Origin: Amoebidium appalachense
Lineage: Eukaryota; Protista; Ichthyosporea
NCBI GenBank assembly: GCA_963693365.1
Contig: CAVNZM010000016.1
Coordinates: 6,555,029 to 6,619,028 of the forward strand
DNA: 64,000 nt
Reading direction: 5' to 3'
Shown: piece after piece, positions 28,527 to 31,500 of the stretch
How the letters are laid out: each line of letters opens with the position of its first letter
Position numbering within the stretch: position 1 is the first letter of the stretch
Notes under the pieces: generated by a model
What the model saw: only the letters and a program-made list of their open reading frames with translations
Databases searched by the model: none
What the model was told of the DNA's origin: nothing
Position numbers and translations under genes: made by a program

Positions 28527-31500
28527 ATGATGGCTGACCGGTGCGTTGACTGCAAGGATGACATCGGGTTTTTCACCCGCCTTGTGGTAAGTCGCTGATC
28601 CGCTCTTGCAAATGCATGTTTTGTGAATCTGCTTTGAGCACCTTCCTTGACTCTGGAAGGTTCAGTGTGTGTTTTTATGCAGCGTTTGGCTGAAATTTGG
28701 AGTATGTGCATGTTTGTATTCTGTGTGTGCGTGTGGGGGTGCACGATTTGTTTGGGATCCTTGCGAGGCTGTTTTAAGCAGCCGCACCGACTGTTACAGA
28801 AGCTTTATGCTCGAATACTTCTTGTGTGTGTATTGTTTAAAGTGTGTGTGGGCCTTTAACGCATGTGCTTTTACTTGTAGTGTGAAGGGACTGTGAATGC
28901 CATGAGCGAGAGGAGAAGAGTTTGAAATTTACTGCTTTTTATTGGTGCACTATCAAGGGGCACGCTCATTTTCATGGTGCATCATACAGTTGTTCGCATT
29001 GCCGTGAGGTGGTGGTGGTGGTGGTGGTGGTGGTGGGTCGGTGGGTGGGTGGGGGTGGGGGGGGGGGGGGGGGGGGGATATAGAGTTAGTGGTTTAGATG
29101 TTTACTGTGCCCATTTACGTACAGAACAAGGACAACTGCAAGCAATGCAAGAAGACAATATGTTCTGACTGCCGGCTGCCTGGGGGGCTGTGCAAGCGCT
29201 GCACCATGTTTCTTCCAGAAAACAGTACGTGTATGCCTGGGTGTCACAAAAAACACAAACTTGTGGCAAGCAACCGAAAGTTCTAGTATGTTGGCAGCTT
29301 GAAACACCAAATTATCGCTAGGGCACACATTTGGGGGGGGGGGGGGGGGGGGGGGGGGGGAGGGAGGGAGGAATAGTTGTGGTGTCTAGTGGCTGTGTCT
29401 CTGGTATAGCTGTGCTGACTTTTGGTGTACACATACTCTCCCCCCCCCCCCCCCCCCCCCCTTTCTCCCCCTTTTCCTTGTAAAGAAAACACTCAAAACC
29501 TCTTCTGCGTCCTCTTGCTTCGACTGATCTCGTGACGCACTGGGCACACATTTTATCATAATGTTACAGGAGAGAGAAGGGGGGGGGGGGGGGGAGGGGG
29601 GGGGTGAGGGGGGGGGGGGGGGCGGGGAGGGGGAATAAACAGGGTCTTTTTCAGAGAGAGTGTGGGTGTTATGTGTAAAAGGATAAGCATACGGGGGTTA
29701 TTGAGTCTATTGACAGAGTCTGAGTGAGCCCATCTGACATATTCCTACTTTTTTGATTGTTTTATAACTATTCCTAACCTTTTTTTTTTCAAGTTATAAA
29801 AACTTTTTTTTTGACGCCAAAACTTCCCGCCCAAATTTCTAAATTTGGCTAATCAGTCAGGACGCACTCCTGGTGTATACTGAGCAAGCAAGCACTGTTT
29901 AACGTGGCGTATATGTTCGAGCAAGTCTGTGTTTGTGATCATCTCTCTCTCTCTCTCTCTCTCTCTTTCTCTCTCTCTCTCTCTCTCTCTCTCTCTCTCT
30001 CTCTCTCTCTCTCTCTCTCTCTCTCTCTCTCTCTCTCTCTCTCTCTCTCTCTCTCTCTCTCTCTCTCTCTCTCTCTCTCTCTCTCTCTCTCTCTCTCTCT
30101 CTCTCTCTCTCTCTCTCCCCCCCCCCCCCTCTCCCCCCCCCCCCCCCCCCCCCCCCCCCCAGCCTCCCCCCAGCCTCGTGCCCCATCTCTCCTGCACCCA
30201 TGCCTTTCTTCATTTACCCTCCCGCCTCTTTTTTTCTATCACTTTTACTAAAGTTCCTTTCTCTCTTCTTCCCCCCCTCCCCCCCCATTAATCCTGTCTC
30301 CCCCCCCCCCCCCCCCCCCCCCCCCTCCCCCCCCCCCCCCCCCCTCCTTCATCCAGTGCCTCTCTGGCTTGGCTCCCTCATCCCCCCCCCCCCCCCCCCC
30401 CCCCCCCCCCCCCGCCCCCTTGGGCCCATGGCTCCCTCTCCTCCACCTCTCCCCTCTCCCCCCCCCCCCCCCCCCCCCCCCCCCTCCCACTCCTCACTCC
30501 CCCTCCTCTCCATCCCTGCCCAACTTTGCCTTTCCCTCCCTCCCTCTCTCGTCTTCCCCCATGTTACCCGCCGTCGTAACATAACTCGGACTATCGGTTT
30601 GGCTTTTTTCAAGCCCAAAGCAATGGGTGATACCATATTTCCGGCTGACATCCGGGGGCATAGCTTTCCGTTCGAAGACGATAAAGTTCCGCCCTAGTAA
30701 GCGTGTTACTACCCTGCGGCGTGGGTCAAATCTCATATTTTCCCCTCTGATTGCGAATTCTGCGGCCCTCGGGACTTAATTCTTTTCAGCTGGTGTAGTA
30801 TGTTAGCCAGGGAAGTATCGACTTAGGTATCGACGGGGAGCTTCCTAGAAGCCCCGTTTCGTGAGTTCCTATCTATATTTTTCTTGCTTCTGCTTACTGC
30901 TGCAACTTTAACCCCCGGCCTTTCCCACTGCCCTTGCCTGCATAAGCAACCCTGCTCGTCTCTGATCAAGACGGGTGACCTACTCATGTTCAAGTGAAAC
31001 AGTATCTGAGTTGGGTTTCGTTAACGAGGGGAATAGGTCGAAACTCGGGTACTGTGGATGACGTGGGCCCCCCCTGAGGATGGGCTCTGCTTATTATGCA
31101 TACTCTTTATGTATGGCTTGCATTCTGCATCGTGTTATCCGTTTGTTCTTGTGTACTTCGTACTTTTTGACGCATTCAAACCCCCCCCCCCCCCCCCCCG
31201 GGCAAAAAAAAAAAAAACTAATTAAATTAAACCCCCCCCCACCATCCAACCCATGCAGTGAACCGCATGACTCTGGAACAACTCCAAGAGCTCACCGTTA
31301 AAGACCTCAAATATCTCTTGGACCACTACGGCCTACCGGGTGGCGGTGTGGTTGAAAAATCCGATATGGCCCGTATCGTCTTTAACCATATCACCCTATC
31401 GAGACAGACCCAAAACCAGAATAGGCGCACACCTAACACGAGCGCAAGCCCCAACCCAACACAAAGACCAAACCCACCGTCCAATGAAATCCCCCGCCAG

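Follow-up and report, generated by a model that had tools for sequence, protein, structure and literature searches.

A candidate split-core type-SGC hammerhead ribozyme in an abundant interspersed repeat of Amoebidium appalachense

An interspersed repeat in the genome of the ichthyosporean Amoebidium appalachense contains a domain of about 155 nt that carries every catalytic letter of the hammerhead ribozyme in an unusual order. Does this domain specify a self-cleaving RNA and, if so, how is its catalytic core assembled? We addressed this in a window of 64,000 nt (contig CAVNZM010000016.1, positions 6,555,029 to 6,619,028) from this intron-rich eukaryote. The window, to which all positions below refer, holds three full copies of the domain.

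30940-31094, plus strand: RNA domain copy A, with strings and helices located in the sequence
42048-42209, minus strand: RNA domain copy B1 (subfamily B), inside a tandem array in an Utp11 intron, on the sense strand
56802-56963, minus strand: RNA domain copy B2 (subfamily B), in an Utp11 intron, on the sense strand

An earlier note, made from the letters alone, had described a pseudoknotted hammerhead-like core in non-circular order on the plus strand of A, and all the strings and helices that it named were found in A, B1 and B2. In copy A the core comprises CUGAGGA (31074-80), GAAA (31040-43) and the triplet GUU (31010-12), and the cut is predicted at 31012/31013, after U31012. Hammerhead positions C3 U4 G5 A6 N7 G8 A9, G12 A13 A14 A15.1 and U16.1 H17 are all present, A and B agreeing in 14 of 14 core letters, and the blocks follow each other in the order S-G-C. 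In the register that the core sets, stem III is 13 bp long in A and 9 bp in B, and stem I is 3 and 4 bp long. Since B1 and B2 are near-identical, the number of independent sequences is two rather than three. The functional strand is fixed, as had been argued, by the G-U pairs of the model (six in A and three in B) and the complete lack of A-C pairs. The expectation that standard searches would miss this RNA was also borne out, with no Rfam match at gathering score in the window.

The order S-G-C is indeed not that of type I, II or III, but it is not new. It is the order of type SGC, a non-circular hammerhead already on record (Eckert et al. 2023, PMC10085705) and the closest of the published permuted models. 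Here and below, statements on cited papers refer to the excerpts of them that were available. In those of Eckert et al., SGC motifs come from metatranscriptomes and from none of the known genomes, and the alignments show CUGANGA, usually a bulged U, G10.1, a 5-bp stem II, a linker of 1-2 nt and an I-II helix, which was needed for cleavage in the SGC-3 construct; one variant family has about 6 nt between the I-II helix and C3 (PMC10085705). Both A and B have a stem II of 5 bp, a linker of 1 nt, an I-II helix of 7 bp and a spacer of 6 nt. The string GACCU-A-CUCAUGU of A (30977-89), which reads GACCC-A-CCCAAGU in B, thus has the anatomy of the published SGC strand. Its 7-bp helix (30983-89/31061-67) lies at the published spacing and has undergone one two-sided and one one-sided change between the subfamilies. 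Three SGC variant rows, CUGAGGAU-GACC..CCCAAGU with ACUUGGG, share the sequence of the 7-bp helix of B, which may be coincidence. Unlike in SGC, however, the strand precedes block S, about 100 nt upstream of its published place after CUGANGA-U, so that block C is split (PMC10085705). None of the three copies forms at least 3 bp directly after CUGANGA[U], and the linkers exceed the limits of 8 and 15 nt in the published descriptor.

This comparison changes how two of the helices are read. The earlier note had seen a 2-bp stem II in competition with a GACC/GGUC helix, and had treated the outer stem as a helix of its own. The crossing helix GACCU/AGGUC is most likely stem II itself, and the outer stem is most likely the SGC I-II helix, which it matches in length and spacing. 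With G10.1-C11.1 included, stem II would have 5 bp if 30977-81 supplies its strand or 2 bp if 31082-83 does, and the sequence favours the former; a U-A to C-G change separates A from B within it. The Rfam type I model RF00163 takes GACCUA..UAGGUC as stem II in A, in a partial match far below threshold (E 4.8) that has no counterpart in B2. Reading GACCU/AGGUC as stem II removes the weak point that the note had recorded for this stem, and moves the novelty from the block order to the split core strand. The scheme of six hammerhead permutations rests on the assumption that no block can be interrupted, and Eckert et al. mention no known alignment with more than 1-2 bases inserted between A9 and G10.1 (excerpts of PMC10085705).

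We prefer a split core because the geometry matches the published SGC family in both subfamilies. In the predicted fold SGC is circularly permuted: the chain opens at the bulged U that lies between A9 and G10.1, and additional helices close it. Based on this model, the domain is probably an active split-core type-SGC hammerhead, likely cutting after U31012 inside a retroposon that targets C runs. We give about an even chance to the fuller proposal, a natural hammerhead broken between A9 and G10.1 and rebuilt via a four-way junction, which would be eukaryotic, nuclear and non-circular and would place a switchable, self-splinting nick in the RNA of a high-copy retroposon. The predicted fold of copy A has the following parts.

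30942-30948, plus strand: 5' strand of P0, the closing helix with 31088-31094, where the RNA termini lie; invariant between A and B
30950-30952, plus strand: 5' strand of P1, CCC, with predicted partner GGG 31082-84, closing the gap after A9-U; pair probability 0.17-0.32
30954-30976, plus strand: P2 hairpin of 8 bp with a palindromic loop, running into G10.1 (from folding)
30977-30981, plus strand: displaced stem II strand GACCU, in which G30977 is G10.1, pairing with 31035-39 (from the A/B change, variants, RF00163 and the SGC alignments)
30983-30989, plus strand: displaced strand of the SGC I-II helix, after the 1-nt linker A30982, pairing with 31061-67 (from the SGC alignments and the A/B comparison)
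30999-31015, plus strand: block S, with a stem III arm, the GUU triplet and the stem I arm GGG (from core strings and pairing)
31016-31029, plus strand: inserted hairpin with a palindromic loop, where published SGC has an S-to-G linker of 2-3 nt (from folding)
31035-31055, plus strand: block G, with the stem II strand AGGUC (C31039 is C11.1), GAAA 31040-43 and a stem III arm (from core strings and pairing)
31061-31081, plus strand: I-II helix strand 31061-67, 6-nt spacer including the stem I arm 31071-73, CUGAGGA 31074-80 and U31081
31082-31094, plus strand: 3' strand of P1 (GGG), then CUC, then 3' strand of P0; 31082-87 alternatively pairs with 31065-70 (rival hairpin)

All the proposed helices are mutually compatible and can form together; nested folding gives stems I and II a probability of 0 because both are pseudoknots. 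Strand 30977-89, placed first, would furnish G10.1 as well as stem II and the I-II helix, and the former SGC ends would be joined into a rod that continues stem III. The A9-U31081 end would run into GGG 31082-84, whose partner, beneath the closing helix, would be CCC 30950-52. P1/P0 and the P2 hairpin would bridge the break at the bulged U, producing a four-way junction from which P2 leads into G30977. The loops of the two hairpins (30963-30968 and 31019-31026) are palindromic in A and at the same places in B, the second with a different sequence in the two subfamilies, and they could let the RNA dimerise.

The model shares with HRIMA-1 and the SGC variants the S-G-C order, CUGANGA followed by U, G10.1-C11.1, a 5-bp stem II and a pseudoknotted core, as well as the 1-2 nt linker, the I-II helix and, with the variant family, the spacer of about 6 nt before C3 (PMC10085705). 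Besides the G10.1/I-II strand, which is moved 5' of block S, it differs from SGC in the P0/P1/P2 domain that fills the U-bulge site, in the hairpin that replaces the S-G linker, in a stem I of 3-4 bp rather than 5-7, in a domain of about 155 nt rather than at most 104, in its occurrence as a high-copy eukaryotic DNA repeat rather than in metatranscriptomes, and in predicted cleavage products that are held by 31 bp (PMC10085705).

Is the structure conserved, or could the strings have come together by chance in a repeat whose RNA structure is not selected? Across 12 substitutions, 42 of the 42 pairs of A still pair in B, with four two-sided and four one-sided changes; the two-sided changes fall in stem I, in stem II, in stem III and in the I-II helix, and the outer pairs of stem III lie in an indel region of the A/B alignment. 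When the same substitutions were placed at random a mean of 36.0 pairs was kept and none of 200,000 trials reached 42, a null that is optimistic because the helices were picked with both sequences in view. A pair-count test on the three-row alignment was not significant (75 of 500 shuffles scored as high), and folding z-scores are modest, -1.0 for A and -2.4 for B. Identity between A and B is 80% within the domain (130/162), 50% upstream (82/165) and 56% downstream (64/115). The domain is thus an island of conservation above both flanks that coincides with the closing helix.

Variant frequencies in contigs of two coded organisms (X1 and X5), per site and for subfamily A only, lend independent support to selection on the fold. 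Of the stem II partner variants, U30981C is at 3.3% in X1 and 4.2% in X5, and A31035G at 3.7% and 4.1%, each counted on its own. U30984C, which turns a U-G into a C-G pair, reaches 42-44%, and G31067C, at about 3%, breaks one I-II pair. No core position is among the variants listed at 2% or more, in a table that is incomplete, since it omits the B-diagnostic site 30962. CUGAGGA is kept in four diverged fragments of the repeat and lost in two.

We also searched with a generic descriptor, written after the RNA had been seen, that combines a stem III of at least 5 bp with UH, a stem I of at least 3 bp, CGAAA, CUGANGA and either a classic or a displaced stem II. In the window it has three matches, which are the real copies; all are of the displaced kind, and no classic match occurs. 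Dinucleotide shuffling (3421 shuffles of a 40,358-nt stripped window, 276.1 Mb in total) yielded 25 bare cores, one match with a classic stem II and two with a displaced one. A structural pattern derived from the copies likewise matched three times in the window, against a mean of 0.00 in 100 shuffles. A chance arrangement would fit the small number of independent sequences, the non-significant pair count and the modest z-scores, but it has to contend with only two such matches per 276 Mb of shuffled sequence, with a conservation island bounded by the closing helix and with the absence of any broken pair across the 12 substitutions. We regard it as very improbable.

A different question is which strand completes stem II. 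Helices P0, P1 and P2 are invariant and hence have no support from covariation, so that sequence cannot decide between the main scaffold and a rival in which 31082-87 forms a hairpin with 31065-70. Computed energies are -29.2 kcal/mol for the rival and -30.1 for the main scaffold in A, and -32.6 and -35.2 in B. The rival hairpin is largely complementary in the fragments and has a single two-sided change: in the 39167-39282 fragment the C-G pair 31068/31084 becomes U-A. Such a hairpin might represent an off state, or it might serve as the clamp in a classic SGC ribozyme whose stem II has 2 bp. The latter possibility leads to an uninterrupted SGC with a switch, in which G31082-C31039 and G31083-U31038 form a local stem II, GGGC 31065-68 and GCUC 31084-87 form the clamp, and the 5' strand 30977-89 is an inhibitor that holds the full-length RNA off. 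The run CUGAGGA-U-G fits the published CUGAUGAUG descriptor (PMC10085705), pair 31068-31084 is C-G, U-G or U-A across fragments, and the two scaffolds lie within 1-3 kcal/mol of each other. Such a stem II would, however, be 2 bp long where the published rows consulted have about 5, none of the three copies passes the 3-bp classic test, and the 5' strand matches SGC lengths and spacing exactly and covaries. We consider the uninterrupted, switched ribozyme decidedly unlikely, and the split core remains the preferred reading.

What carries the domain? Copy A lies in a 5'-truncated interspersed repeat, whose extent and fragments in the window are as follows.

30560-31182, plus strand: copy A of the 5'-truncated, C-run-flanked interspersed repeat (contig depth from about 30560 to 31200)
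39479-39632, minus strand: 5'-truncated A copy without the displaced strand and block S (nhmmer profile)
35798-35932, plus strand: 3' fragment of another subfamily, CUGAGGA kept (nhmmer profile)
13816-13982, minus strand: diverged B-like 3' fragment, GAAAC and CUGAGGA kept (nhmmer profile)
39167-39454, minus strand: two diverged 3' fragments, 39367-39454 and 39167-39282, CUGAGGA kept (nhmmer profile)

Contig depth, with loose ends before 30560, indicates that the element extends further 5' in other copies. The repeat is very abundant. In 20 of the 24 runs listed, under five coded organisms, at least half of the words of A are present, and in two runs about 10,000 contigs per run align to A, a depth that should not be read as copy number. 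With an nhmmer profile of the 3' part, 12 matches lie outside the satellite, nine of which are truncated fragments. Eight of the 12 end directly in a C run, 5' ends vary and go-back joints are present. The C-run ends and varied 5' ends are what target-primed retroposition into C runs would be expected to leave. Traits of Penelope-like elements (PLEs) are found (5' truncation, partial tandem copies and microsatellite bias), all of them common to other retroposons too.

Based on Pfam, B1 and B2 are inside the Utp11 gene and A is just upstream of an RNF34-like exon, so that A is likely in an intron of the RNF34-like gene. Ten of 11 intronic repeat matches (13816-57090) lie in sense orientation to their host genes, which are SPT2-like, RNF34-like and Utp11; the exception is 38333-38376. 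The Utp11 intron also contains a tandem array (40677-54708, minus strand) of 155 units, each made up of about 65 nt and a C run whose length is mostly 14-22. Its unit resembles the 3'-terminal 60 nt of the repeat family, which looks as though repeated rounds of copying had inserted this end into its own C run. At 42389-42441 (minus strand) a short piece of the B 3' end lies head-to-tail upstream of B1, with a C run between them, forming a partial tandem; B may be a unit of about 445 nt. Upstream of the domain in copy A, a weak CPEB3/HDV-like Rfam match (30676-30764, plus strand, E 1.7) resembles the model at its 3' end; as an HDV/CPEB3-like fold it was rejected, P2 pairing poorly by eye.

The earlier note had placed the RNA in the 3' UTR of a retroposon and linked it to the Naiad/Chlamys clades of PLEs. 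Neither an ORF nor an RT could be assigned to the repeat, which leaves both the label and the link unsupported, and an affiliation with Naiad/Chlamys is a lead only. A 45-codon frame at 30560-30694, the only open frame available, is reminiscent of a PLE post-thumb motif; its searches gave either no match or seven matches, of which the six scanned are repeat-rich proteins without an RT domain. The only RT in the window, an ORF at 8133-10163 (plus strand), belongs to a different element and was rejected as the enzyme of the repeat: it is a fragment of a LINE with relatives that have an APE-type endonuclease domain, and it ends in (CA)n. A THAP-domain, P-element-like transposase gene, apparently split by introns, is present at 947-5840 (plus strand).

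The setting bears on what cleavage might do. Because 31 base pairs bridge the cut, a nick after U31012 would stay splinted and could be re-ligated, rather than releasing the pieces. Reverse transcription would start about 170 nt downstream of the cut, at the C run. As copies span the cut and share a fixed right end about 170 nt downstream, their template must have been uncut or re-ligated, which parallels the PLE of Anolis, where the hammerhead is protein-assisted and RT starts downstream on uncut RNA (PMC11167929). By analogy with PLEs, the likeliest role would be a slow or protein-assisted processing of read-through or tandem transcripts. Contigs ending near 31014 in a run guessed to be RNA were set aside, as they are not evidence of cleavage. 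No RNA run is listed among those that contain A, which speaks neither for nor against expression.

The same observations could mean that a hammerhead-derived fold has been kept for another job, such as protein binding by the retroposon, RNA stabilisation or dimerisation via the palindromic loops, while by itself it cleaves little or not at all. That full copies span the cut site with no step in depth there, that all three are on the sense strand of host genes and that stem I is short would agree with this, as would the Anolis hammerhead, which depends on protein and without which insertion in vitro still proceeds (PMC11167929). Against it, none of the 14 core letters differs between the subfamilies, whose identity is 80%, and CUGAGGA persists in four further diverged fragments; retention of the catalytic letters is explained most simply by selection on cleavage. 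We therefore think it unlikely, though worth keeping in mind, that the fold serves such a job, and continue with the cleaving split-core RNA.

Compared with hammerheads of other mobile elements, the domain resembles those of PLE pLTRs in its place close to the fixed end of repeats that are 5'-truncated and partly tandem, in copies that span the cut (PMC4209133; PMC11167929) and in the extra base or bases between positions 9 and 10.1, where PLE hammerheads tolerate, and commonly have, one (PMC4209133). Microsatellite-associated insertion is shared with Naiad/Chlamys as reported. In contrast, PLE hammerheads are of type I, often minimal and dimeric, whereas here stem III is long and the order non-circular (PMC4209133; PMC11167929), and no PLE RT or GIY-YIG sequence was found for the repeat (45-codon frame searched). 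The note's premise that Naiad/Chlamys lack canonical hammerheads needs qualification: Craig et al., who searched with canonical and relaxed descriptors, list two Chlamys families that do carry hammerheads (10.1101/2021.04.23.441226). Non-LTR retrozymes are likewise non-coding, hammerhead-bearing repeats probably moved by the RT of another element, but they are tandem units with type I hammerheads, whereas the copies here are dispersed and 5'-truncated (10.64898/2026.07.22.740005). The mammalian discontinuous Clec2 hammerhead is also built from separated pieces in a 3' region, around an insertion of several hundred nt (PMC6765202).

Searches for relatives beyond the window returned little. Family patterns had no matches in viral contigs and the structural pattern none in metagenomes; a relaxed 18-mer found 25 metagenome loci, none of which extends into the domain. 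A looser pattern found nine loci in viral contigs, none of which folds, and two matches in prokaryote genomes are about the chance expectation. One of these two, at the end of a prokaryote contig (L035, 501-581, minus strand), has S, G and C strings, stems of 4 bp and 3 bp and a hairpin after stem I, and was judged to be chance; it lies upstream of an apparent ORF, and its own upstream part is missing. A covariance model matched its three training copies alone. As for published descriptions, the Clec2 insertion reportedly sits in a stem loop of canonical topology and not between A9 and G10.1. The search for type-SGC hammerheads returned the original paper alone (PMC10085705), with most subscription journals outside its coverage. 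Neither a split core nor a eukaryotic genomic SGC is described in the excerpts of the literature searched, mostly from non-subscription sources and including PMC13725137, PMC10162972, PMC6765202 and 10.64898/2026.07.22.740005.

If it works, the split-core form would break the rule of uninterruptible blocks that underlies the six permutations, and A9/G10.1 would be a site where the core accepts whole domains, of use in building ribozyme switches. The hammerhead family would then have a topology beyond the six block orders believed to cover it, and non-circular hammerheads would extend from viroid-like RNAs to a eukaryotic genome. The two subfamilies provide ready-made constructs and compensatory pairs for a cleavage test of the predicted ribozyme. 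More generally, retroelements scored as hammerhead-free by canonical descriptors may carry forms that are invisible to those searches.
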